A stretch of DNA of 48,989 bases from an uncultured bacterium (GCA_937903605.1 CALCZC010000013.1:1-48989), one strand, 5' to 3'. Counted from the first letter of the stretch, positions 34,399-48,989 are shown. Notes: generated by a model from the sequence alone, not told the origin. Numbers and translations are program-made.

Positions 34399-35493
34399 AT
34401 GATAACATTGAAAAAGATATATTCTCTGGCTGAGATTTATAATGTGCCAGTGGAGGATGTTTTGTTTGTCGCATTGAATATTTACGGAGCTGCTTTTAAA
34501 TGTGATTTTAACCGCATGAGAATGGGGATACATACTATCGAACAAGAAGTATTCAAATATTCCCACTCCCTTGGCATCAAAGACTTCTATTTTGCATTGC
34601 CGATTAATGAAAGCAGCCCTTTCTCTGTTACTGACGGAAAATTGCTTTTTGATAATCAGGAAATAGCTGATGCAATTGAACCGTCCGAAGATTTTTGCGA
34701 TTCAAACTATCCAAGAAGAAACGGTACGGTTTTGAACATTAACCCAAATTCTCGCACATCTTGTCGGGGGTGCAAGTTTTGCTACACAGGCTATCAAGTG
34801 CCAAGAGATATGAAACGCATGGCTTGTGCAACGGACATAAAGGAATTTTTTGATAATTGGATGGCCGAGAAAAAATTAGTCGATCTTTCAAATCTTGTGC
34901 AGGTAGCCGTGGTTACTGGTTGTTATAATAGTAATAGCGAGCTAAGCTCATTCTTGATTTTGTTGAGGGAGATATTGAACCGATATCAATTCAAAGGCGA
35001 AATTTTCTATCTTGGCTCGCAGATTACCAATAAAGAAACACTGGAAAAGCTAAAGTCAATTCAACCTTTCTGTTACTGTGTATCTCTTGAGTGCTTTGAA
35101 AATAGAAATACACTTCTTCGTGACAAGAAAAGCAGCATGACGGTTGAATCCGCTTTTAAATTGATGGACTTTGCTAAATCCATTGATCACCGAGTAAATT
35201 TTTCCTATGTGCTTGGATTGGAGTCGCTGTTTACGGTTGAAAAATACTTTTCATTGGCAAAAAGGTTTATAAACAGCTTTCCAATTGTAAATACAATTCA
35301 GCTTCACAAATATCACAGTGCCTCGCTTCTTACGCCTGAGGCGGTAAATATCGAATATTTTTTTGAGGCCAGAAAACTGCTTGAAAGAATATTTATTGAT
35401 ACTGATATGAGGCCGAAGGAATGGGAAAACTATCGTAGTTTATGGTTTTTGAAATTTGCCGAAGAAAAACTTACAGGCATCAGAACGCCATAA
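34399..35493 (+). CDS. Radical SAM-like Fe-S protein with CX2CX2C motif
   Basis: SCRGCKFCY, VAVVTG, SLECF and FSYVLGLE; AGGAGG SD. Confidence 0.6.
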   Translation: MITLKKIYSLAEIYNVPVEDVLFVALNIYGAAFKCDFNRMRMGIHTIEQEVFKYSHSLGIKDFYFALPINESSPFSVTDGKLLFDNQEIADAIEPSEDFCDSNYPRRNGTVLNINPNSRTSCRGCKFCYTGYQVPRDMKRMACATDIKEFFDNWMAEKKLVDLSNLVQVAVVTGCYNSNSELSSFLILLREILNRYQFKGEIFYLGSQITNKETLEKLKSIQPFCYCVSLECFENRNTLLRDKKSSMTVESAFKLMDFAKSIDHRVNFSYVLGLESLFTVEKYFSLAKRFINSFPIVNTIQLHKYHSASLLTPEAVNIEYFFEARKLLERIFIDTDMRPKEWENYRSLWFLKFAEEKLTGIRTP

Positions 35494-35555: not shown

Positions 35556-36368
35556 TCAAAGAGGGCTTTTGATATTTTTGATACTGGGATTAGTCACGTG
35601 AGTATATATTTGCGTAGTGCGGATATTGGCGTGGCCCAAAAGCTCTTGTACATAACGTACATCAACGCCGTTTTCTAGTAGGTGAGTGGCGAAACTATGG
35701 CGTAAACTATGAAAGCTAGCGGGTTTTTTGATCCCTGATTTTTTCAATGCTTCTTCAAATATGGCTTGCGCGGTTCTGACGGTGAGTTTGCCACCACGAT
35801 TACTTTCAAAAAGATAATCCTCGCCGTTTCGTTCACCTGTCAAAAAATATAAATCATTTTTGATATTTTCTGGAATAACGGTTATCCTGTCTTTTTTGCC
35901 TTTGCCTTGCCTTACTTTCAAAATTAGTTCATCAAGTAAAACGTCTTTTATTTTCAAATCAACAACTTCACTCACTCGCAATCCCGCTCCATAAGCTAGA
36001 GATAATAGTAACAAATGTTTTTTATTGGTAACTTGAGATAAGATATTTTTGATTTCTTCTTTACTCAAAACTTCCGGCAAAGAATTGTTTCTTTTGGCAA
36101 ATTTTAGATCAACTCTTTGGTTATTTTTCAAAACATCATGATAGAAAAATTTTATAGCGTGTAAATACAAATTAATTGTTTGAGGAGAAAAATGCTTGTC
36201 TTGTTTTGAAAGTAAAAATTGTCTGATTTTGTCTATACTCAAAACCTCAAAATCAACTCTCAAAAAGATAAAATAATCTCTTAAACAGCCAAGATAGGAG
36301 TCAATGGTCCGAGGGCTATAATTACGTAGTCGTAACTCAATCCGAGTTTTGTCTAAAAATTCTTGCAT
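35556..36368 (-). CDS. IntI-like tyrosine recombinase (short form, no I2 insertion)
   Basis: LRLRNYSPRTIDSY N-domain; catalytic GLR, GKGKKDR, HSLRH, LLGH and TQIY; C-terminal SPL as in IntI; divergent from a cassette array. Confidence 0.92.
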   Translation of the reverse strand: MQEFLDKTRIELRLRNYSPRTIDSYLGCLRDYFIFLRVDFEVLSIDKIRQFLLSKQDKHFSPQTINLYLHAIKFFYHDVLKNNQRVDLKFAKRNNSLPEVLSKEEIKNILSQVTNKKHLLLLSLAYGAGLRVSEVVDLKIKDVLLDELILKVRQGKGKKDRITVIPENIKNDLYFLTGERNGEDYLFESNRGGKLTVRTAQAIFEEALKKSGIKKPASFHSLRHSFATHLLENGVDVRYVQELLGHANIRTTQIYTHVTNPSIKNIKSPL

Positions 36369-36473
36369 ATTTTGATAAAAAAGAGTAAAATTTGTATATA
36401 TTTATATACAACAACATTATACATAAAATTCGTAAAATATACAAATTTAGGTATATTTCACGTAGTTTTATTC

Positions 36474-36493
36474 GTATAACAACCAGTTGCGCA
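36474..36493 (+). other. Candidate attI site
   Basis: GTATAAC-AACCA-G|TT, an inverted AAC/GTT core with a 5-bp spacer, 105 bp upstream of the integrase start. The first mini-cassette begins at the G|TT. Confidence 0.6.
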
Positions 36494-36639
36494 AAATTTC
36501 GCTTCGCTCATTTTGCGCAATGTGCGGCGCATAACTGCGCCAGCTGTGCTTCGCGAAGCTTCGCACAACTGTCGCATATCCAAAATGGCGATCTGATGAC
36601 AAAGTCATCATCTCACCACTTCGGATTATGCGCCGCACA
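36487..36639 (+). mobile_element. 153-bp gene-less mini-cassette type A, copy 1
   Basis: TTGCGCAAAAT...GCCGCACA, identical to copies 2-4; inserted at G|TT. Confidence 0.9.
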
Positions 36640-36826
36640 TTATACGCAATTCAAAAAATATTTTTCTTTTAATAAGGAATTTTGACAGGCTTTTTTAAAG
36701 GGGAATAAATTTGTTTTTTTATTTATTAGAAAGGGGTATAAGGTGTTTTCTCCGCTTCGCTACGAAAACGATTTATTTATAAGGGGAAAACGAATACAAT
36801 ACAAATACCTATCACGAAAATAATTT

Positions 36827-38629
36827 ATGCCAAAAATTAAGGATATGCCTAAGATTGACCGCCCAAGAGAACGATTTTTGCAAAAAGGGGCTGATGCACT
36901 TTCAAAGAGTGATCTTTTGGCAATTCTTTTGGGTAGCGGAATTAAGGGGAAAAATGTTAGACAGCTTTCGGAAAATATTATTAAAAAATTCGGTAAAAAC
37001 TTTTTAAATATCACCGTTGATGATCTTTTAGAAATTTCGGGAATTGGACAAGCTAAAGCATTACAAATTGCTTCCGCTGTTTCGTTAGTAAAAAGATTTT
37101 ACGACGAGGACAAAACAAACGAAATTGTTATAAAAAACTCTCAAGATGTTTTATCCCTTACTTATGATTTAAGAGACAAGAAAAAAGAACATTTAGTTTG
37201 TCTTTATTTGAACGCACGAAATGTTTTGTTGAAAAAAGAAATTGTTAGTGTAGGTCTTTTAGACAAAGCATTGCTACATCCGAGAGAAATTTTTTACCCT
37301 GCAACCGAATTAAACGCCGCCAGTGTAATTTTGGTTCACAATCACCCTTCGGGCGATTCTTCACCTAGCGAAAAAGACAACCAAATTATTGAAAAAATTG
37401 TGCAAGCCGGCGAGATCATGGGAATACCTGTTATTGATTTTATTATTATTTCGACAAATGGAAATTATAGTTTTTTTGAAAAGTTAAAAGGTCAAAACAC
37501 AAATTTTGATTATGTAGCGGATGGTGTACAGGGAACGCTTTTTAATCTGTTGGAAATTGAAAAATCACCTTACGAGGTAACGATAAAAAAGATCGAAAAG
37601 CCATATTTTCATTTTTCAAAGACAAAAAGCAATTCATTCCAGCTACAAAATAGAAGATATTTAGGAAACAAGCATAAATTACTTGGTTTTATTGAAGATA
37701 TTGTTTCTGAAAAATGCAATGGAATAAAATCATTTTGCGATATTTTTGCCGGCACAGGCGTTGTTGGCGAAAGATTTAATAAGCCCACAATCAAAGTTAT
37801 TTCAAATGACATACTTTTTAGTAACTACGCTTGTCTAAAAGCTTTTCTCGGCATAAACACAAACATAGATAACATTACGGAAAAAATAAAAATTTTAAAT
37901 AACCTACAAGCTACTGAAGATAATTATTTCTCAAAGCATTTTGGAAATACTTATTTTTCACTAGAAAACGCTAAAAAAATTGGGGCTATCAGAGAAGAAA
38001 TAGAAAATATTGCAGAATCCGAAGAAGAAAAAAACGCTCTCATTTGCTCGCTATTATATGCAGTTGACAAAGTTGCAAACACCGTCGGTCACTATGATGC
38101 CTTTCGTAAAGATTTAGACATGATTCAGCCAATAATGCTGTTAACGCCAGATATTGATTACTCAAACAATGCAAATAACGAAGTTTACAAGGAAGATGCA
38201 AATATTTTGATTAGAAAAATTTCTTGTGATGTATTGTATATCGACCCGCCATATAACTCACGTCAATATTCAGATGCTTATCACTTGCTTGAAAATCTTG
38301 CGGAATGGAAAAAACCAGAAGTCGAAGGAGTGGCAAAAAAAATGGATCGTTCACACATCAAAAGTTCCTACTGCCTCAAAAATGCGACGCAGGCATTTGA
38401 AGATTTAATCAGAAATGCGGATTGTAAACATATTTTATTATCATATAATAATACTGGGGATTCAAAAGACGGACGATCAAATGCCAGAATTTCTGACAAT
38501 GACATTTTAAGAATATTAAAAAACAAAGGAGAAGTTGAAATTTTTGAAAGAGATTACAAAGCCTTTACCGCGGGCAAGAGTAATGGCGACGGAAATGCGG
38601 AAAGAATTTTTTATTGCAAAGTAAACTAA
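36827..38629 (+). CDS. RadC (JAB) - D12-class N6-adenine DNA methyltransferase fusion
   Basis: PRERF...LLAILLGSG, HPREIF and VHNHPSGDSSPSEKD (RadC), then RRYLGNK, DIFAGTG and YIDPPYN (MTase), in one frame. Confidence 0.9.
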   Translation: MPKIKDMPKIDRPRERFLQKGADALSKSDLLAILLGSGIKGKNVRQLSENIIKKFGKNFLNITVDDLLEISGIGQAKALQIASAVSLVKRFYDEDKTNEIVIKNSQDVLSLTYDLRDKKKEHLVCLYLNARNVLLKKEIVSVGLLDKALLHPREIFYPATELNAASVILVHNHPSGDSSPSEKDNQIIEKIVQAGEIMGIPVIDFIIISTNGNYSFFEKLKGQNTNFDYVADGVQGTLFNLLEIEKSPYEVTIKKIEKPYFHFSKTKSNSFQLQNRRYLGNKHKLLGFIEDIVSEKCNGIKSFCDIFAGTGVVGERFNKPTIKVISNDILFSNYACLKAFLGINTNIDNITEKIKILNNLQATEDNYFSKHFGNTYFSLENAKKIGAIREEIENIAESEEEKNALICSLLYAVDKVANTVGHYDAFRKDLDMIQPIMLLTPDIDYSNNANNEVYKEDANILIRKISCDVLYIDPPYNSRQYSDAYHLLENLAEWKKPEVEGVAKKMDRSHIKSSYCLKNATQAFEDLIRNADCKHILLSYNNTGDSKDGRSNARISDNDILRILKNKGEVEIFERDYKAFTAGKSNGDGNAERIFYCKVN

Positions 38630-38634
38630 AATCT

Positions 38635-40470
38635 ATGAAAAAACCTTGGTCAATAACAACAACTACCAGAAGTCCTTACCGACTAAAAGAGCAACTGCGA
38701 GTATTAGTTGATAATTTTTCCGGCTTTGAGTGGACAAGAGAAAATCAGATAAATTTTCAGATTTCTTTGATTCAACACCGCTTATATGGACACAACGAAG
38801 ATACCGGTTTTTCTCAACAATTTTTAAACGGCTTGTCGGAAACACACAAAGAAATATTCACTGATTTTTCGCATATCTTAACTTTTGAAGAAGCTAAAGA
38901 GATATTTGATAGCAAAAATTACGAGGATCCCTCAATGAGAGGTCGACAATCCTTTAACCCATTTAAAAAATTCGGATTTGTGAGATTGAGAAAGAAAATT
39001 TTAGAAATAACACCATTCGGTGAGAATTTTTTGTCTAATGAGCATGATCTTTCAGATATATTTTTTAGTAGTTTTATAAAATGGCAATTACCTAATCCCG
39101 ATAATTCTGGCTACAAATTGGCTGACGGCTACAATATAAAACCATTTATTGGAATACTCCACCTTATACGCAAGGTGAATGAAAAATCTTTGGCATTAGG
39201 AGAAAAAAATAAAGGAATTAGTAAGGCAGAATTTTCATTATTTGGCCCCTCGCTAGTAAATTTTAATGACGTTGATTCATACGCTGAAAAAATTATTGGC
39301 TTACGACAAAAATTGAATGGAAAAAATAAGCAAGAACAAAAAGCTATTTTTGAGCAGTATAAAAAAACTTTTGCAAAAGAATTTCTCCAGTCCGACAATC
39401 CAAAAGGAGTAAATAAACTCCTTAAAAACTTGAAAGATTACGGCGATAATGCCATTAGGTACTTCCGATTAACTAACTATATCTATATTCGTGGTGGTGG
39501 TTTTTATATTGATTTAGAGCCGAGAAGGTCTGTTGAAATTAACGCCTTGCTAGATTTTGACAATGCACAATCCAAAACATTCGCAACTAAAGAGGCGTAT
39601 TTTGATTACATTTCCGACATTGCGCAACCGCATCTCCCTTGGGAAACAAAAGAAAAGTACATTGAGATTGTTGCCAAACTTATTGAAGAAGTAAAGAATT
39701 ATGAAACTGAATTAGAAAAAGAGCCCGTTGTAATACAGGACTATTCAAAATTGGAGGAAACTGAACTAAAAACATACATTGCCGAGCTTAGAAAATACCG
39801 ACGAGAATTACAAGATCAAGAAGCTCACAGTAAATCCCAAGACACAGAAGCAATAAAATCCTATATCCAAGAATTGGAAAATATTTTTGATGCCGATGAC
39901 AAACCTATACTGCTTGAAAAACTTTCATCGTTAGGCTTGCACGCACTAAACGATGCTCTAAAAATACAACCAAATTATCCTGTCGGAGACGACAACGAGC
40001 CAACATTTACAGCACCAGCCAACACGCCCGATATAGAATGCTTTTATAAAAGCTTCAATGCTATTTGCGAAGTAACAATGCTCACGGGACGAGATCAATG
40101 GTATAATGAGGGTCAGCCAGTTATGAGACATTTAAGGGATTTTGAAAGTAAATATAATGACAAAAACTCTTATTGCTTGTTTATTGCGCCAAAAATTCAC
40201 AGGGATACAGTCAATACTTTTTGGACTGCTATAAAATATGAATATGAAGGCAAAAAACAAAGGATAATTCCCCTGTCAATCGGCAATTTTGTTTCTCTTC
40301 TGAATATCTTGGTTAAAATAAAATCAGAAAATAAATTTTTGAAGCACAGCGAAATTTCCAGACTGTATGATGAAATAATCAATTCATCAAATTCTTTTAA
40401 CGATTCCAACGAATGGCTCAAAAATATTCCTGCGACTATTTCGTCATGGCAAGAAAGCCTAACATTCTAA
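38635..40470 (+). CDS. AlwI/Nt.BstNBI-family type IIS restriction endonuclease
   Basis: WSITTTTRSPYR, DPSMRGRQS and PTFTAPANTPDIEC...EVTMLTGRDQWYNEGQPVMRH; flanked by two MTases. Confidence 0.85.
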   Translation: MKKPWSITTTTRSPYRLKEQLRVLVDNFSGFEWTRENQINFQISLIQHRLYGHNEDTGFSQQFLNGLSETHKEIFTDFSHILTFEEAKEIFDSKNYEDPSMRGRQSFNPFKKFGFVRLRKKILEITPFGENFLSNEHDLSDIFFSSFIKWQLPNPDNSGYKLADGYNIKPFIGILHLIRKVNEKSLALGEKNKGISKAEFSLFGPSLVNFNDVDSYAEKIIGLRQKLNGKNKQEQKAIFEQYKKTFAKEFLQSDNPKGVNKLLKNLKDYGDNAIRYFRLTNYIYIRGGGFYIDLEPRRSVEINALLDFDNAQSKTFATKEAYFDYISDIAQPHLPWETKEKYIEIVAKLIEEVKNYETELEKEPVVIQDYSKLEETELKTYIAELRKYRRELQDQEAHSKSQDTEAIKSYIQELENIFDADDKPILLEKLSSLGLHALNDALKIQPNYPVGDDNEPTFTAPANTPDIECFYKSFNAICEVTMLTGRDQWYNEGQPVMRHLRDFESKYNDKNSYCLFIAPKIHRDTVNTFWTAIKYEYEGKKQRIIPLSIGNFVSLLNILVKIKSENKFLKHSEISRLYDEIINSSNSFNDSNEWLKNIPATISSWQESLTF

Positions 40471-40473
40471 CTT

Positions 40474-41250
40474 ATGGGTATGAAAACAAACATTATTTAT
40501 AACGACGATTGCGTAGATATACTCAAATTAAAAATTGATAAGGAATCAATTGATCTTATTTTTGCCGATCCGCCATATAACTTATCTGGCAACGGACTAT
40601 CTTGGAAAGGCAATAAAACTGGTGGTGATTGGTACATGGTAAATGAGGCATGGGACAGAATGTCCGCACCAGAATACCTGCAATTTACCAGAAAATGGAT
40701 TGGTGGTGCCTATCGTGCATTGAAAGACGGCGGATCAATTTATATTTCCTGCACTTATCACAATATCGCAGAAGTCATGATTGTTTTGAAGCAACTGGAT
40801 TTCAAAATCAATAATATCATCACTTGGCAAAAAACAAATGCGATGCCGAATATGACAAGACGAGTTTTTACACACTCTACTGAATTTGTAGTTTGGGCGG
40901 TAAAAGGCAAAAAATGGATTTTTAACTACGAAGAATTAAAGAAACTAAACCCCGACAAACAGAAAGACGGATCTCTAAAACAAATGCGAGACGTTTGGCA
41001 ATTGCCTCTCGTTCAGGGCAAAGAAAGAATCAGAGGAAATGATAACAGGGCTATTCACCCCACCCAAAAGCCAGAAGAAATGTTGCGTCGTATTATTCTC
41101 GCATCTTCGAACAAGGGCGATATTGTTCTTGATCCATTTTTAGGTAGTGGGACGACAACTTTTGTAGCAAAAAAACTTGGGAGGAAATGGATAGGAATAG
41201 AAAAGGACAAAAAATATTTTACGGTTGCGGAAAAAAGAATGAATTATTAG
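40474..41250 (+). CDS. beta-class N4/N6 DNA methyltransferase
   Basis: [14 protein letters not shown] and [11 protein letters not shown]. Confidence 0.93.
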
Positions 41251-41254
41251 AAAT

Positions 41255-43279
41255 ATGAACAATAATGAATCAAAAACAAACGGCTGGCTACATAATAGGT
41301 TTTTCCTATTTTTAACTTTTACTATTGCTTTGCTTGGTGCAAATTATTTTTTTACAGGAAACCTTTTTCCTAGCACTAATACAAAAGAGCTTTGGTTTTA
41401 CTCTGGAATTTTCATGGTTCTTTTTTCGATTCTTTTTATTGAGCCGTATTATACATCTCCTAAAAATGTTATAACCAACGCCATCCCGCTATTGCTTGTT
41501 TTTCTTTCGATAGAAAATACCTTTGAAAACAAAATCTTATGGTGGATTGCGGTTGCAATAATTTTAGCTCTACTTTTCTTTTCAATTATCGCAATTGCGT
41601 TAGAGGATAAAAATAAAAGTCCAAATCATTTGAAAAATAAATTTTCAGAATTGTTAAAAAAACTTGTAGTAATTGTCGGCAAGGGAAAAATTATCTATTC
41701 CGCAGTTTTTCTTTTATTCTTATTCGTTAACATTACATCAAAACCGGCAGAAGATTTTAATCAGATATTTGATAGTTATTTTGTGGTTTTACTAATCTTT
41801 TGGGGCTTAATTCTTTCTATTGATCCGAAAGAAATAAATAATACTTTTTCTTTAAAGAAAAAAATACTTAATGATGATGCACTAGGCGAAATTTTTGGAG
41901 TTCAATCTAGAAAAATATTTCTGGTAAAACTTTTTGAGGATAGAAAAGAAATAAAAAAGTTTGACATAGTAAGATTTAGATATTCAATGCAGGATTCAAA
42001 TGATTTTTTAATATCAGGCATTGTTTTTGACACATATTTACTTAATCAAGAGAAGTGGGCAAAGGTTTTGCAATTAGGGAAAATAGCAAAAAACAGTTCT
42101 AGTGCCGAAAAAAATGTTGTTTATAAAGTATCAAATAGCGAAGAAATCGACACACTGGAAAAAGAATTACGCACAGATCGCTTTGTTGGTATTGTGATTG
42201 AAGGCTCAAACATAGGAAAAATTAAATTTGAGTATTCAAAAAAACAAGAGGATTTACAAGAGGGAGATTTAATCGAACTAAAAACAAATGATAAAAGATT
42301 ATTTTATCAAGTAATTAACGGACTAACTGAAAAGGAATCTTTGGAACATCGAAATGAAACAAGTTTTATTAAAGGCGAGGCAATTCAACTTGGAGAATGG
42401 AAAAACGATGATCTCTCCTTTCAAAAATATGGCTGGGTACCTTCCATAAATACGCCTATTTTTAAAGCTGACACGTCTGATATTGAAGTGAAGAGTTTTA
42501 ATTATCCCGAATACAAACTTGGAATAATTCCCAATACTTCATTGCCTTCTGTAATTAACTTAGCTCAAGCAGTTAGTCATCATATGGCTCTATTAGGCGT
42601 TACTGGATCAGGTAAATCCTTTCTCGCTCGCGAAATTATAAAAGAATTAACTAATGATACAAAAATAATTTGTGTTGATTTTACAAGTGAATGGAAAAAG
42701 GAGGTTGAAAAAACAGCAATTACTCCAACAATATTAAACAAGGACAATATAGACACTTTTTTAAGCGGTACGGATAAAATTGGGATTGTTGAATTGCCCG
42801 CAATGAGTAATACAGTTGAAATTATAAGTGCCACAGAAAAACTTTTTGAAGCAATATTTAATTTTGCAAAAAAGAAATACGACGAACAAAATCCAACAAA
42901 AATATCTCTCGTACTTGAAGAAGCTCACACAATAGTTCCTGAAGAAAAATTTTTAGGTGTTAATAATTGGGATAGTAAGGCTATAGTAAATAAGATGGGG
43001 CAGATTGCCTTACAGGGCAGAAAATACGGAATAGGCTTACTTGTCATCGCACAAAGAACTGCAAATGTTTCTAAAACAGTTTTAACGCAATGTAATACAG
43101 TTATTTGTTTTCAAGCATTTGACGAGACTAGTTTTAATTTCTTAGGAAATTATGTCGGCAAAGATCTCGTTCTGACACTTCCAAATTTAAAACAATACCA
43201 TGCAATTGTTACTGGCAAAGCTATCAAATCAAATGTTCCAATGATTATTGATTTAGAAAGAAAAAAGGAGAAAGAATAA
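41255..43279 (+). CDS. Membrane-anchored HerA/FtsK-like (DUF87) ATPase
   Basis: About 6 N-terminal TM helices, HAS-barrel-like middle, HMALLGVTGSGKS, LVLEEAH and GRKYGIGLLVIAQR. Confidence 0.85.
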   Translation: MNNNESKTNGWLHNRFFLFLTFTIALLGANYFFTGNLFPSTNTKELWFYSGIFMVLFSILFIEPYYTSPKNVITNAIPLLLVFLSIENTFENKILWWIAVAIILALLFFSIIAIALEDKNKSPNHLKNKFSELLKKLVVIVGKGKIIYSAVFLLFLFVNITSKPAEDFNQIFDSYFVVLLIFWGLILSIDPKEINNTFSLKKKILNDDALGEIFGVQSRKIFLVKLFEDRKEIKKFDIVRFRYSMQDSNDFLISGIVFDTYLLNQEKWAKVLQLGKIAKNSSSAEKNVVYKVSNSEEIDTLEKELRTDRFVGIVIEGSNIGKIKFEYSKKQEDLQEGDLIELKTNDKRLFYQVINGLTEKESLEHRNETSFIKGEAIQLGEWKNDDLSFQKYGWVPSINTPIFKADTSDIEVKSFNYPEYKLGIIPNTSLPSVINLAQAVSHHMALLGVTGSGKSFLAREIIKELTNDTKIICVDFTSEWKKEVEKTAITPTILNKDNIDTFLSGTDKIGIVELPAMSNTVEIISATEKLFEAIFNFAKKKYDEQNPTKISLVLEEAHTIVPEEKFLGVNNWDSKAIVNKMGQIALQGRKYGIGLLVIAQRTANVSKTVLTQCNTVICFQAFDETSFNFLGNYVGKDLVLTLPNLKQYHAIVTGKAIKSNVPMIIDLERKKEKE

Positions 43280-43541
43280 ATGGGGTAAGCAAATAAAAGG
43301 CAAAAATTCCCTCCCCTTAAACCCCTTCCTTTTTGCCTTTTATTTGAAGAGAATAAGGAGTTTTGGATTTTGGGCATTCACCCCTAACCCCTCTGCCCAA
43401 AATCCAAAACAAAAAAACAAATTTATGATTATTGAATAAAAAGCCTGTCAAAATGAAATTGAATGAAAAATATTTTTTGAACTCGCTCCTTTCAATCGCG
43501 CCCCGCTGCGCTCTCGCCTCCGCTACGCTACGGCTCGGGGC

Positions 43542-43640
43542 GTATAACACAGCGTATGCGGTTCGGGGCTCGGCTCGCCCCTCACCCATATTTTTGCTCC
43601 CGTTGGTCGCAAAAACATCGCATACGCTGGAACGTTGCGC
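43542..43640 (+). other. attC site 1
   Basis: R'' GTATAAC, L'' CAGCGTATGCG, L' CGCATACGCTG, then GAAC-G|TT. CGTATAAC complements the cassette start G+TTATACG (36640). Confidence 0.85.
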
Positions 43641-43787
43641 AAAATTTCGCTTCGCTCATTTTGCGCAATGTGCGGCGCATAACTGCGCCAGCTGTGCTTC
43701 GCGAAGCTTCGCACAACTGTCGCATATCCAAAATGGCGATCTGATGACAAAGTCATCATCTCACCACTTCGGATTATGCGCCGCACA
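43635..43787 (+). mobile_element. 153-bp mini-cassette type A, copy 2
   Basis: Identical to 36487-36639. Confidence 0.9.
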
Positions 43788-43811
43788 TTATATGAAATAC
43801 ATCACAAAATT

Positions 43812-44612
43812 ATGATAATCGACAGTCATTTACATCTATCATACTTAGATGAAGAGAAAAAAAATCTTTTCGAAGTAAAAAAAGAACTTTTAGAATCAAT
43901 GGAAAAATACGGTATTGATTATTCGATTGTCATTCCCGATAACGTGCCAAACCCAAAATGCGCTGATACAGAAACAATGTTTAATATCATTGGAGACGAC
44001 AAACAGTTTTTTTCAATGGGAACCATAAATATTTTTCAAGATATAGAAAAACAAATATTAAATTTAGAATCACTGATAACGGCCAAAAAAATTTGCGCTA
44101 TCAAGCTTTTTCCTGGACACGACCCCTTCTATCCTGTCGATGAGAAATGCCAACTAATTTATGAATTATGCGCTAAACACGATATTCCAGTTGTTTTTCA
44201 TACTGGTGCAAACACTGGAAATGCTGATTGCGCAAAATATAATGATCCAAAATACATTGTCGAAATTGCAAAAAAATACAACACCTTAAAAGTTGTCATT
44301 TCACATTTTTTTTGGCCTAAGATGGAATATTGTTATGAGGCAACCAAAGACTTGAAAAATATTTATTACGATACTTCAGCAATGGCAGATGATGAAGTTG
44401 TTGAAAGTTCTGGTGGCTGGGATAAAGTTGTAGAAATATTGAAAAAAACTGTTTTACATAAACCTAAAAACGTTTTGTTTGGCACTGACTGGCCAATGTG
44501 CCCTGTCGATAAACACATAAAATTAATCAAAGATTTGGGATTAGATTCCAGAACCGAAGAAAAGATTTTTTTTCTTAACACAGTTGATCTATATAAACTC
44601 GAAATTTTGTGA
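43812..44612 (+). CDS. Amidohydrolase_2-family metal-dependent hydrolase (cassette gene)
   Basis: IIDSHLHL, IKLFPG, VVFHTG, ISHFFWP, YYDTS and LFGTDWP. Start moved to ATG 43812. Confidence 0.88.
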   Translation: MIIDSHLHLSYLDEEKKNLFEVKKELLESMEKYGIDYSIVIPDNVPNPKCADTETMFNIIGDDKQFFSMGTINIFQDIEKQILNLESLITAKKICAIKLFPGHDPFYPVDEKCQLIYELCAKHDIPVVFHTGANTGNADCAKYNDPKYIVEIAKKYNTLKVVISHFFWPKMEYCYEATKDLKNIYYDTSAMADDEVVESSGGWDKVVEILKKTVLHKPKNVLFGTDWPMCPVDKHIKLIKDLGLDSRTEEKIFFLNTVDLYKLEIL

Positions 44613-44620
44613 TGTACTTC

Positions 44621-44777
44621 ATATAACACCTGCCTATGCGGTTACAGAATTTTTCCAAATCCAATTAACGCCAAGGAATAAAAAATTCTTCCACCCAAAT
44701 TTTTATCTTTCTTTTCTTAAGAGAATTAACATCAAGGAAGAAAGATAAAAACTTCGCATCATCCGGATACGTTGCGC
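44621..44777 (+). other. attC site 2
   Basis: CATATAAC complements the cassette start G+TTATATG (43788); CTATGCG...CGCAT arms (imperfect, possibly hybrid); GGATAC-G|TT. Confidence 0.75.
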
Positions 44778-44924
44778 AAAATTTCGCTTCGCTCATTTTG
44801 CGCAATGTGCGGCGCATAACTGCGCCAGCTGTGCTTCGCGAAGCTTCGCACAACTGTCGCATATCCAAAATGGCGATCTGATGACAAAGTCATCATCTCA
44901 CCACTTCGGATTATGCGCCGCACA
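44772..44924 (+). mobile_element. 153-bp mini-cassette type A, copy 3
   Basis: Identical to copy 1. Confidence 0.9.
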
Positions 44925-44943
44925 TTATATAAAATTTTATACT

Positions 44944-45270
44944 ATGAAAAAATTGATTGTCGTTTTATCCAGCGGTGCATTGGTTCTACCAGAAATAGCT
45001 AATGCGTGTTATTTAACGCCCAATTTTAAGAATATTTTTTTAAGTGGCATTATTGGCCTGGTCTTATCCGCCATACTGATAACATTAATTCATAAAAAAA
45101 TAAGTAAGTTATTTGCAAAAAAATACAAATATTATTTGCTGTTTATACCAATTTACATAATAATGACCTTGATACTCATTATGATTATCCCGCTGGATAA
45201 AACGACAATTGAATGTGGGAATACTACAGGAAATGAGCAACTACCAGAAAATTTTGGCAAAACGCCATAA
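44944..45270 (+). CDS. Small membrane protein (cassette gene)
   Basis: 108 aa from ATG 44944, signal-like N-terminus and 2 TM helices. Confidence 0.7.
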   Translation: MKKLIVVLSSGALVLPEIANACYLTPNFKNIFLSGIIGLVLSAILITLIHKKISKLFAKKYKYYLLFIPIYIIMTLILIMIIPLDKTTIECGNTTGNEQLPENFGKTP

Positions 45271-45313
45271 ATACCGGAAATCAAAACGATATTTTTTCAT
45301 AGTATAAAACTTT

Positions 45314-45726
45314 ATATAACAGCGTATATACGGCTCACAAGCGAAATAAAATTATTTTTTCTTTTATGCGTGGAGATAACAACATTTTACGGTTAGACGG
45401 CGCAAATATGGATATTGATTTGACTTCCGGGGATAAAACTTCGTGGAAGCAAACAGAATGTCCATGGAATGAGGCCGAGGGTACAAATGAACACAAATGC
45501 GCCGTCAAAAATGTTTCTATTTGCAAATATTTCTGCGGAATTGAGTATTTAGACAATGTTTTGTGCTGTTATCCCAACAAAAATATGCTGGTGGATAACA
45601 AACAGAAAAAATAATTATATTTTTAATCGCTTGTTCGCCCAAATTCGGTTTCCGTTTTGTGTTGGCGCTCCGCGCAATTTTAACACAAAACTACAACCGA
45701 ACTTCGTATATACGCGTACATTGCGC
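45314..45726 (+). other. attC site 3, with a ~400-bp variable region containing an ORF
   Basis: TTATATAAC complements the cassette start G+TTATATAA (44925); GCGTATATACG (45322-45332) pairs with CGTATATACGC (45705-45715); then GTAC-A|TT. Confidence 0.75.
45366..45614 (+). CDS. Small Cys-rich hypothetical protein inside attC3
   Basis: 82-aa ATG ORF with 6 Cys; protein-like composition in otherwise structured DNA. Confidence 0.55.
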   Translation: MRGDNNILRLDGANMDIDLTSGDKTSWKQTECPWNEAEGTNEHKCAVKNVSICKYFCGIEYLDNVLCCYPNKNMLVDNKQKK

Positions 45727-45873
45727 AAAATTTCGCTTCGCTCATTTTGCGCAATGTGCGGCGCATAACTGCGCCAGCTGTGCTTCGCGAAGCTTCGCAC
45801 AACTGTCGCATATCCAAAATGGCGATCTGATGACAAAGTCATCATCTCACCACTTCGGATTATGCGCCGCACA
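45721..45873 (+). mobile_element. 153-bp mini-cassette type A, copy 4
   Basis: Identical to copy 1. Confidence 0.9.
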
Positions 45874-45934
45874 TTAAGTGAAATTGAATTTTGACAACGA
45901 TTGTAAAATACAAGTTCATTTATAAAATAACCTT

Positions 45935-46330
45935 ATGAAAATTTTTGTTCAATTTGTTTCAAGCTTAGTGGGCGGCATATTGTTAGGCATCATTGGACTT
46001 TTTATTGGCTCCATGATTGGCGGCAATTTCGGCTTCCCTGAATTCGGAGGTAACGTTGGATATCAAGCAGGAGGCCCTTTTTTCGGAATTATTGGAATTT
46101 CGCTAGGAAGCCTCCTTGGAATAATAGCTGCTAAAAGAATTCAAAAGGATCAGTTTATATATTCAATAACCTCAATAGCCGCCATTATAACAACTATTAT
46201 CGGCTTACTTCTTTTTGATTACAATATGCCGCCAGCTATTGGCTTTAGTATACCTTTGATGCCAGCAATAGTATTAATAATCGTCACAAATTGGCAAAAA
46301 TTTTTTAAAATTAAACTAAATAAAACTTAG
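45935..46330 (+). CDS. Gly-rich multi-TM membrane protein (cassette gene)
   Basis: 131 aa, about 4 TM helices with GxxxG repeats. Confidence 0.7.
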   Translation: MKIFVQFVSSLVGGILLGIIGLFIGSMIGGNFGFPEFGGNVGYQAGGPFFGIIGISLGSLLGIIAAKRIQKDQFIYSITSIAAIITTIIGLLLFDYNMPPAIGFSIPLMPAIVLIIVTNWQKFFKIKLNKT

Positions 46331-46345
46331 CCAAAATTCAACATC

Positions 46346-46432
46346 ACTTAACACGGGATACACGGTAAAGTCTTTCGCGGAAAGACTTTACTCAAATTGC
46401 TACGCAACTTCGCTTATCCCGGAACGTTATCT
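46346..46432 (+). other. attC site 4
   Basis: CACTTAAC complements the cassette start G+TTAAGTG (45874); CGGGATA...TATCCCG arms; internal hairpin GTAAAGTCTTTC/GAAAGACTTTAC; GAAC-G|TT. Confidence 0.85.
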
Positions 46433-46596
46433 AAAATGTCTCTCGCTCCGCTCGCTCCATTTTAGATAATGTGGCGCGTATATCTCCGCTGTTCTCCTCG
46501 CGTCGCTTCGCGACACTTCAGATAACAGCGGATAATCTGTAATATCTGTCTGACGACTTCGTCGTCATCCAGCTACTACAGATTATCCGCGCCACA
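46427..46596 (+). mobile_element. 170-bp gene-less mini-cassette type B
   Basis: TTATCTAAAATG/CATTTTAGATAA hairpin, then AATGTGGCGCG...CGCGCCACA|TT main stem with two branches; same layout as type A with a different sequence. Confidence 0.8.
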
Positions 46597-46659
46597 TTGT
46601 GTGAAATATTTTAGAAAAATTTAAATTTATATCATATTTATTAATAATATATAATTACC

Positions 46660-48694: not shown

Positions 48695-48989
48695 AGTGCC
48701 CGCCCCAAAGGGGCCCCTTCGGGGGTGTGGGAATCTGCTTCGCCTCTCGTCGTCTTCCGACTCCTCGGGCTAGCCACCAGCTCGCGGTTTTACTCGCCCG
48801 CAAGCTCGTAAAACATCGCTCCGCTGTTCTCATCCTGACGCGAGCAAACAGTTTTGCTCGCTCCCCAGACAAAATAACACAGACCAAAAAAGGTCTGTGT
48901 TATTTTGTCTGGGGCGGGAATTCCTCGTCGTCTCGCCGACAAATATCGGCTCGACTCCTTGCCCTGGGCAGCGTCGGATTCACACTGTG
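48695..48989 (-). repeat. Tandem GC-rich palindromic elements related to the tRNA-fMet-associated element
   Basis: The reverse complement of 48744-48778 matches 20578-20612 at 30/35. A perfect 23-bp inverted repeat lies at 48863-48885/48892-48914. Confidence 0.75.

Follow-up and report, generated by a model that had tools for sequence, protein, structure and literature searches.

Recombination in integrons is thought to depend on a domain specific to the integrase IntI, which reads extrahelical bases of the folded attC site. A folded single strand is also used by XerCD for CTX-phi, with exchange of one strand. Among described systems, the closest to the locus reported here are integrons, above all sedentary chromosomal ones (the Vibrio superintegron, for instance) and those of archaea, reportedly described by Ghaly and colleagues in 2022. 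Our locus lies in a stretch of 48,989 nucleotides of DNA from an uncultured bacterium (the window, always meant at its full length), the host being an ultra-small, Magasanikbacteria-like member of the Candidate Phyla Radiation (CPR, Patescibacteria). It consists of a gene for a short tyrosine recombinase and of an array in which gene cassettes alternate with gene-less units, here called minis. We read it, with a probability of roughly 0.8, as a chromosomal gene-cassette platform that is integron-like in its working and run by a short Xer/XerA-like tyrosine recombinase, the minis being gene-less hairpin cassettes. An earlier note on this DNA had proposed a distinct cassette-shuffling system with two site types per junction. 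Of this, a cassette-exchange platform with a divergent recombinase, an attI-like site and co-oriented cassettes with a folded 3' site stands; the two sites per junction do not. No account of an integron-like platform in the CPR, nor of alternating gene-less cassettes, turned up in literature searches. What this locus adds is that identical minis alternate strictly with gene cassettes, that such alternation recurs in three further lineages, that sites divide into bulged and unbulged ones, and that population data speak for exact gain and loss of cassettes.

The likeness to integrons extends to several levels of organization. The recombinase gene is divergent from an array that runs in one direction, and the adjoining insertion site has direct-repeat accessory boxes. 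Cassette ends form an imperfect palindrome (R''-L''...L'-R') with a crossover at G|TT and with R' belonging to the next cassette, and unpaired or bulged bases occur near the crossover and in the L box. The order of the boxes, the G|TT footprint, an asymmetric central loop of 1 versus 4 nt and a TT/AA bulge of the L box recall attC; the boxes are longer than those of attC and have another consensus. Most cassettes hold one gene, without a promoter or with one of its own, for accessory or defence functions, and cassette content varies between strains. Unlike integrons, the locus has a recombinase of only 270 amino acids that lacks the I2 or additional domain, fails the model for integron integrases and passes that for XerA. 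Its R boxes span at least 11 nt (TTRNNNNAAAT) instead of 7, with complementarity to the cassette's own start of up to 24-29 nt, and genes can lie within the L''-L' loop. Multi-gene restriction-modification cassettes of 6-7 kb also occur, and conserved, gene-less, unbulged hairpin cassettes alternate in identical copies with the gene cassettes.

Nine plus-strand units start after a 118-bp spacer upstream of the recombinase gene: cassettes 1 to 4 follow in this order, each with a copy of mini-A in front of it, and mini-B stands ninth. The order, boundaries and lengths given in the earlier note were confirmed to the base by open reading frame (ORF) and repeat listings, direct reading and a script. 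The features are given below with their basis in brackets, where mini-finder denotes a strict pattern finder for the plan of the minis.

35556-36368, minus strand: tyrosine recombinase, 270 amino acids, XerA/IntI-like and probably of the 'Cand' type discussed below (catalytic motifs RVSE, HSLRHSFATH and LGHANIRTTQIYTH; Phage_integrase and SAM-like N domains)
36369-36486, plus strand: attI-like region (consensus kept upstream of homologous recombinases of the CPR)
36428-36444, plus strand: accessory repeat ATTCGTAAAATATACAA in the attI-like region
36471-36479, plus strand: arm TTCGTATAA in the attI-like region, followed by CAACCAG and the crossover 36486|36487
36487-36639, plus strand: mini-A copy 1 (identical copies, fold, mini-finder match)
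36640-43634, plus strand: gene cassette 1, 6995 bp (repeat pair I8, fold, protein-family matches)
43458-43634, plus strand: folded site of gene cassette 1, with R'' CGTATAAC at 43541-43548, L'' at 43550-43562 and L' at 43617-43629
43635-43787, plus strand: mini-A copy 2 (repeat listing, identity, mini-finder)
43788-44771, plus strand: gene cassette 2, 984 bp (repeat pair I6, 24 nt at 96%; fold)
44603-44771, plus strand: site of gene cassette 2, with R'' CATATAAC at 44620-44627
44772-44924, plus strand: mini-A copy 3 (repeat listing, identity, mini-finder)
44925-45720, plus strand: gene cassette 3, 796 bp (repeat pair I1, 29 nt at 97%; fold), with R'' TTATATAAC at 45312-45320, L'' at 45322-45333 and L' at 45704-45715
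45721-45873, plus strand: mini-A copy 4 (repeat listing, identity, mini-finder)
45874-46426, plus strand: gene cassette 4, 553 bp (ORF listing, fold, repeat pair I7)
46323-46426, plus strand: compact site of gene cassette 4, with R'' CACTTAAC at 46345-46352
46427-46596, plus strand: mini-B, TTATCTAAAAT...ATTTTAGATAAT GTGGCGCG...CGCGCCAC A|TT (fold, mini-finder)

The four copies of mini-A measure 153 bp each and are 100% identical at all positions when compared by script; mini-B (170 bp) has the same architecture and a different sequence. The first bases of all nine units read TTRNNNNAAAT, preceded by G or A. Close to its end each unit repeats its own opening in reverse complement as the R'' box, the signature of circular cassettes. 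This complementarity had been noted before for the four gene cassettes and proved longer than claimed, at 24-29 nt with 79-97% agreement in the repeat listing; in cassette 1 an insert of about 50 nt, rich in GC, separates a 24-nt arm from the R'' box. Behind R'' stands AAC, or AAT in minis, and then come the L'' arm, a loop and the L' arm, with 0-4 nt left between L' and the following [G/A]|TT. In 14 cassettes from eight arrays, R' has a variable core of 5 nt that pairs with the R'' of its own cassette. The cores comprise 13 distinct sequences and the pairing is perfect in all cassettes except one mini of locus L011, which has one mismatch. Such pairing of each R' with its own R'' is not chance. 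No R'' partner was found downstream for TTGTGTGAAAT, which follows mini-B, and the array appears to end with mini-B.

Sites fall into two structurally distinct classes that are kept across phyla, the minis with an unbroken stem and the gene cassettes with a bulged one. In the gene cassettes the pattern is ...AAC-A-[L'']...[L']-NAAC-G|TT, which places an asymmetric loop of 1 nt versus 4 nt next to the crossover, and the L box keeps the pair TATGCGG / ACTTCGCATA with TT bulged (AA on the opposite strand). Minis have no asymmetric loop: a short GC-rich loop resembling TCGCTTCGCTC joins R' and R'', and R'' runs directly into a GC-rich L stem. In mini-A copy 1 these parts are R' TTGCGCAAAAT, a 12-nt loop, R'' ATTTTGCGCAAT and an uninterrupted L stem GTGCGGCGCATAA...TTATGCGCCGCAC, followed by A|TT. 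Folded with DNA parameters, the minis form hairpins of -48 to -59 kcal/mol with a perfect stem of 24-28 bp and a three-way junction, and the circularised units form long hairpins on both strands. The two site types of the earlier note are therefore real as structures, while each boundary is a single crossover; from its order of boxes (R'-short loop-R''-L''-loop-L'), a mini is better read as a complete gene-less cassette with one crossover [G/A]|TT per boundary.

The mini-finder was run on both strands of about 1 Mb of fetched loci, and its matches were confined to arrays: five in the window, three in L071, two each in L011 and L032, and one each in L031, L041 and L079. Locus L011 has a third copy with a divergent end beyond its two matches. 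A reading of the minis as transposons or miniature inverted-repeat transposable elements was rejected, as the copies stand just at cassette boundaries and their boxes follow the cassette plan. Runs rich in GC (CGCTTCGC) or words of the GCGAAGC type occur in the loops of the minis and in the 50-nt R-stem insert of cassette 1 (43482-43531), in a genome of 35% GC. The oligonucleotide d(GCGAAGC) is an unusually stable DNA mini-hairpin, and by this analogy such words in the loops would fit folding at the level of DNA.

The platform is conserved across the CPR. With one genome scanned per species, 80 recombinase loci were obtained, and upstream of the homologous recombinases the attI region follows the consensus TTCGYATAAYATACAA-N20-25-TTCGYATAR-N-AA-N-SAG|TTRNNNNAAAT. 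The window and some 30 loci of the CPR have this site, with examples from Saccharibacteria, Peregrini-, Gracili-, Wolfe-, Moran- and Magasanikbacteria and Paceibacterota. In several attI regions the arm is repeated in inverted orientation, as in CTATACGAA-N5-TTCGTATAG, and near-perfect palindromes were seen in L001 (CTATACGAA-TTTTC-TTCGTATAG), L041 (CTATACGAA-TAGTT-TTCGTATAG) and L011 (ATATACGAA-AACAC-TTCGCATAT). As befits an insertion site, cassette content changes exactly at SAG|TT (L003 versus L004; X17). A profile of the L'-R' junction, built with nhmmer from 16 junctions and iterated on the CPR loci, converged on AAACTTCGCATATGCCGAAACG|TTATGTGAAAT; at E<=1 all 28 of its CPR matches lie upstream of the recombinase on the strand of the array, and none lies elsewhere. 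The expectation that homologous recombinases carry arrays was thus borne out by the scan, the attI consensus and the junction profile. About 20 of some 35 CPR contigs stop 80-580 bp upstream of the recombinase gene, as repeats or strain variation there would cause them to do.

Minis also recur outside the window. In the closed Wolfebacteria genome L011 the order is attI|mini|cassette|mini|cassette|mini, the three minis being 176-219 nt long and 95-100% identical, and the Gracilibacteria locus L032 has two identical minis of 240 nt, the first directly after attI. Three identical minis of 177-184 nt are spaced 1.4-2.2 kb apart in the Cytophagales locus L071, and a mini directly follows attI in L020, L030, L031 and L041. 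Of the 70 orders in which four identical minis and four gene cassettes can stand, 1-2 alternate perfectly, and the alternation in the window together with the other arrays is unlikely to have arisen by chance. Cassettes that open with the same leader as cassette 1 stand directly after attI in L023 and L026, and after differing, lineage-specific minis in the window and L032; therefore the minis are resident and the gene cassettes travel. Outside the CPR, short recombinases of about 40% identity are followed downstream, on the same strand, by repeat arrays in L071 (13818-17630, Cytophagales), L050, L051 and L083 (Flavobacteriaceae), L063 (Spirochaetia) and L057 (Saccharibacillus). L063 has six junction-profile matches, L050 has at least six repeats of 130-140 nt at a spacing of about 1 kb, and the minis of L071 follow the CPR plan. 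By sequence, the platform family may extend to Bacteroidota, Spirochaetota and Bacillota with another orientation of gene and array.

Profile scores place the recombinase equally near archaeal XerA and IntI. In NCBIfam it passed the cutoff of XerA_Arch (NF040815, 225 bits against 220) and failed that of the integron integrase (TIGR02249, 208 against 265); it scored about 195 bits against XerC/XerD and 133 against PRK15417, below the cutoff of 435. The best solved structures were two of XerA (4a8e with 147 bits and 5hxy with 139), followed by Vibrio IntI4 (2a3v) with 137. The alignment to IntI4 is split, residues 3-169 matching IntI4 4-173 and residues 202-270 matching IntI4 249-317. The IntI-specific insert is absent, with 32 residues (170-201) where VchIntIA/IntI4 has 75 (174-248). 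The absence of an I2-type insert, implied by the earlier note, is therefore confirmed; as to the label 'IntI-like' given there, the sequence is equally near XerA. The catalytic motifs are intact and a C-terminal ...KSPL is common to the recombinase and IntI. Homologues are found throughout Patescibacteria, 60-76% identical across CPR classes and nearly all 270-271 residues long. Passages of a study of tyrosine recombinases describe, among the simple ones, a 'Cand' subgroup that is close to Xer, restricted to candidate phyla and placed among putative dimer-resolution enzymes (Smyshlyaev et al., bioRxiv 10.1101/542381). On these traits the recombinase of the window and its relatives are probably that subgroup, as the same protein family. 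The passages of that study retrieved by term search make no mention of cassette arrays, an attI-like site or hairpin sites. The far side of the gene was also compared. Strains with recombinase genes 97-99% identical part directly after the stop codon (window, from 35556 leftwards; L003, 960-1140). Beyond it the window and X13 have an ORF of 364 amino acids of no known family (34399-35493), and L003, X3, X17 and X20 have other DNA (GGGGCTTTTTTGTTTGG...); the second flank of the recombinase gene is therefore also variable.

A recombinase of this kind could instead be the cell's only Xer enzyme and the adjoining site its dimer-resolution site, the cassettes having accreted at dif as non-autonomous exploiters of Xer, in the manner of the CTX-phi integrative mobile element exploiting Xer (IMEX) or the pdif modules of Acinetobacter. 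We consider this improbable, though it overlaps in part with the platform reading, as both invoke folded sites and exchange of a single strand. The locus shares with Xer/dif systems (archaeal XerA, XerS/difSL, XerH/difH) the type of recombinase by sequence and size, a site beside the gene and a palindromic element in the attI region. The pdif modules are likewise discrete gene modules, theirs bounded by Xer sites, and the use of a folded CTX-phi strand by XerCD, with one-strand exchange, shows what Xer enzymes are able to do. Dimer resolution would also suit the high conservation of the family at about 270 residues, the XerA_Arch score, the near-perfect attI palindromes of L001, L041 and L011, and the place given to the 'Cand' subgroup in the passages cited (Smyshlyaev et al., bioRxiv 10.1101/542381). 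Against it, GC skew has the same sign on either side of the array in the window and in six of nine loci with long flanks, with no skew switch, and the crossover falls 7-8 nt outside the palindrome. Between cassettes no dif-like site is regenerated, each junction being one hybrid hairpin site. In place of dif copies the cassettes, all co-oriented and with the integron-type G|TT footprint, bear long hairpins of the integron plan (R''-L''...L'-R'), in which the arms covary and a bulge is present.

The minis might also be non-coding modules, such as insulators, terminators, promoters or small RNAs, that are kept in place by selection and are not mobile. Their very stable hairpins, the presence of a mini between every pair of genes and the invariance of mini-A among strains would suit such a role, and metatranscriptome contigs cover both mini-A and mini-B, although these RNA data are thin and may reflect carry-over of DNA. 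We regard this explanation as distinctly improbable. Promoter and terminator scans found no sigma-70-like promoter inside mini-A and no T-run after its stem, and the idea of mini-A as a promoter module was dropped on these results; gene cassettes 1 and 4 have promoter-like sites of their own. At the gathering threshold Rfam recognised tRNAs alone, with just sub-threshold chance matches on the minis (mir-2763, CRISPR-DR22). The minis keep the exact R'/R''/L''/L' order of cassette boxes, and both ends of mini-A are crossover points that meet many different neighbours.

Those neighbours were found in public metagenomes, searched as assembled Logan contigs, which drop rare forms. In X2, X3 and X4, from three other studies, a joint 36639|46427 connects mini-A directly to mini-B, skipping 9787 bp with 4 nt in common; this junction is also present in X20. 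Cassettes 2, 3 and 4 occur together in X13, which also has the junction of cassette 4 with mini-A, while X20 has cassettes 2 and 4 and not 3, and X17 has 2 and 3 and not 4. Directly behind attI, L003 and X17 have another cassette in the place where L004 has mini-A, the change falling at AACCAG|TT. The sequences seen behind mini-A number at least ten, namely mini-B, cassettes 1-4, the cassette of L085 and one variant of that cassette, TTAGGCGACAT..., two cassettes with the R' box of cassette 1, and a variant of the cassette 1-like leader. That cassettes move as units, as they do in integrons, is thus seen at the level of populations in an exact deletion joint, the independent assortment of cassettes 2, 3 and 4, and new neighbours at both ends of mini-A. 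Rearranged and deleted forms of this kind are what the reading in the earlier note called for in related genomes.

Mini-A itself showed no differences in X13, X17, X20 and X21, although the recombinase gene differs by 2-3% in such strains (X13, X17), which points to recent spread or homogenisation of mini-A. In the source-like run X1, contigs end at every mini-A, and mini-A assembles as a separate 156-nt contig. Its depth is 39.8, while the recombinase gene has 9.5 and the gene cassettes have 7.8-10.6 each. The depth ratio of mini-A to recombinase is 4.2, therefore there are four copies of mini-A per genome and none to spare for elsewhere, the ratio serving as a proxy for the absence of mini-A outside the array. 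The ratio is 2.0 in X13 and 3.6 in X17. A scan of metagenome contigs with a 25-nt word of mini-A retrieved one contig, L085. We also observed the same cassette with two R' boxes, TTATCTAAAA... in L085 (8020-7990; like the R' of mini-B) and TTGTCGGAAA... in X17, with identity past position 10; as the sequences stand, the R' arm may be exchanged or converted as a unit.

Four perfect direct repeats of 153 bp would suit RecA, and units of a gene cassette with mini-A could loop out and re-enter at any mini-A, so that gain and loss of cassettes would come about by homologous recombination with minis as portable homology. This is very unlikely to be the explanation. The recurrent deletion joint has just 4 nt in common, on which ground an origin by RecA alone was rejected, the switches between attI and cassette at AACCAG|TT occur without flanking homology, and homologous exchange could not produce the complementarity of each R'' to its cassette's own first bases. 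That the repeats and their order come from mis-assembly of a mixed population is hardly credible, since, for all that short-read contigs break at every mini-A, the depths in X1 fit one recombinase, four equally deep gene cassettes and four minis, every single junction was found in independent runs of other studies, and the same architecture exists in the closed genome L011.

In the cassette platform as we picture it, the recombinase would bind the double-stranded attI-like site beside its own gene, through the TTCGYATAR arm, a centre of 7-8 nt and the TTRNNNNAAAT arm, and would also bind single-stranded cassette hairpins folded from the R''/R' and L''/L' stems. It would then exchange one strand at [G/A]|TT, and cassettes would therefore enter and leave as circles, with predicted junctions ...GGATACG|TTATATG... 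for cassette 2 and ...CCGCACA|TTGCGCAAAA... for mini-A. The junction footprint is such that the left part remains with the left cassette and the switch falls at [G/A]|TT. Because the centres differ between partners, single-strand exchange followed by replication would fit better than a two-strand Xer reaction, and the covarying arms of R' and R'' would make sense only with a folded site. Copies of mini-A could multiply by excision from one sister chromosome and re-insertion, and would by now have come to occupy most junctions in the arrays of this species. Tandem identical minis would be unstable and lost, so that minis would persist just where a selected gene cassette separates them, and alternation would arise for this reason. 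Alternation may also arise if unbulged sites (attI and the minis) and bulged gene-cassette sites are preferred partners, with which the observed deletion is consistent, as the site of mini-A would have paired with that of cassette 4. In both cases each gene cassette would be bracketed by efficient, always-foldable sites and stay individually exchangeable, and units of a mini and a gene cassette may move together.

A bolder idea, which we hold tentatively and think unlikely as a whole, is that the minis, as unbulged and double-strand-like hairpins, are a second conserved class of site that acts as portable mimics of attI, offering docking or partner sites. Synapsis of unbulged with bulged sites would lead to strict alternation and leave gene cassettes individually excisable, and the system would be an Xer-derived analogue of integrons, or a surviving precursor without the I2 domain, ranging from Patescibacteria to Bacteroidota (L071).

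Several points weigh against the platform reading as a whole. Reads across circle junctions were not found in the assembled contigs, from which rare forms are dropped, and the recombination reaction itself was not observed. Cassettes 1-3 lie between identical minis and their relative order cannot be checked with k-mer contigs, the fixed joints being those of attI with mini-A and of cassette 4 with mini-B. The strong conservation of the family and the Xer-like view taken in the passages of Smyshlyaev et al. may indicate that the enzyme does housekeeping work and that the cassettes hitch-hike on it. Minis are absent from many arrays of the family, L001 among them, and two gene cassettes adjoin in L085; the minis are therefore optional and not required.

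The genes carried by the cassettes, with the leader of the first, are as follows.

36640-36826, plus strand: conserved leader of gene cassette 1
36827-38629, plus strand: RadC-JAB/Dam-like methyltransferase, gene cassette 1
38614-40470, plus strand: AlwI-family endonuclease, gene cassette 1
40474-41250, plus strand: N4/N6 methyltransferase, gene cassette 1
41255-43279, plus strand: HerA-like ATPase, gene cassette 1
43812-44612, plus strand: Amidohydro_2 protein of gene cassette 2, with ATG 43812 as its likely start (MIIDSHLHL)
about 44946-45270, plus strand: membrane protein of gene cassette 3, between R' and R''
45366-45614, plus strand: Cys-rich ORF of 82 amino acids inside the L''-L' loop of gene cassette 3
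45935-46330, plus strand: membrane protein of 131 amino acids, gene cassette 4, with a promoter-like site of its own at 45901-45928

Cassette 1 encodes a type IIS-like restriction-modification system with a HerA-like ATPase, by matches to protein families (two type II methyltransferases, a type II nicking or AlwI restriction endonuclease, and HerA); its first methyltransferase is a fusion with RadC-JAB. The products of cassettes 3 and 4 are small membrane proteins. Genes lie either between R' and R'', as is classical, or within the L''-L' loop, a layout seen also in the first cassette of L085 and in cassette 2 of L011. In L001 (Magasanikbacteria, recombinase 76% identical) two cassettes lie between attI and ruvC, one of 6 kb with an EcoRI-type methylase, GmrSD, an AAA ATPase and an S8 peptidase, and the other with an acetyltransferase. 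For a Pc-type promoter there is one weak promoter-like match on the plus strand (36401-36429, 9/12). In the window, L023, L026, L001, L011 and L032 the first gene cassette begins with a conserved leader, about 150 nt long and followed by differing genes, which reads TTATACGCAATTCAAAAAATATTTTTC ... GGGGRATAAGGTGTTTTC-hairpin-GAAAACG-ATTTATTTATAAGGGGAAAA. In the window it holds a good promoter-like site (TTGACA-18-TAAATT, 36682-36711), and Rfam gave no match to it. It could serve to regulate cassettes of restriction-modification or defence. Apart from the array, the end of the window (48700-48989), after a terminator, is GC-rich and highly structured, with a near-perfect palindrome of 28 nt at 48858-48919; the window ends within this stretch, for which Rfam gave no match at threshold.

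Taken together, an Xer-sized enzyme without the IntI domain is tied to arrays with an integron-type footprint across a whole radiation of bacteria with minimal genomes, and the system bears on how integrases evolved from Xer-like ancestors. As a natural experiment, it can show what hairpin recombination demands of the site and of the enzyme. The minis represent a minimal selfish cassette or else an adaptor site, and they explain the breaks that metagenome-assembled genomes show beside the recombinase gene. For the bacteria of the CPR, the platform provides a dedicated route for trade in defence and membrane genes.

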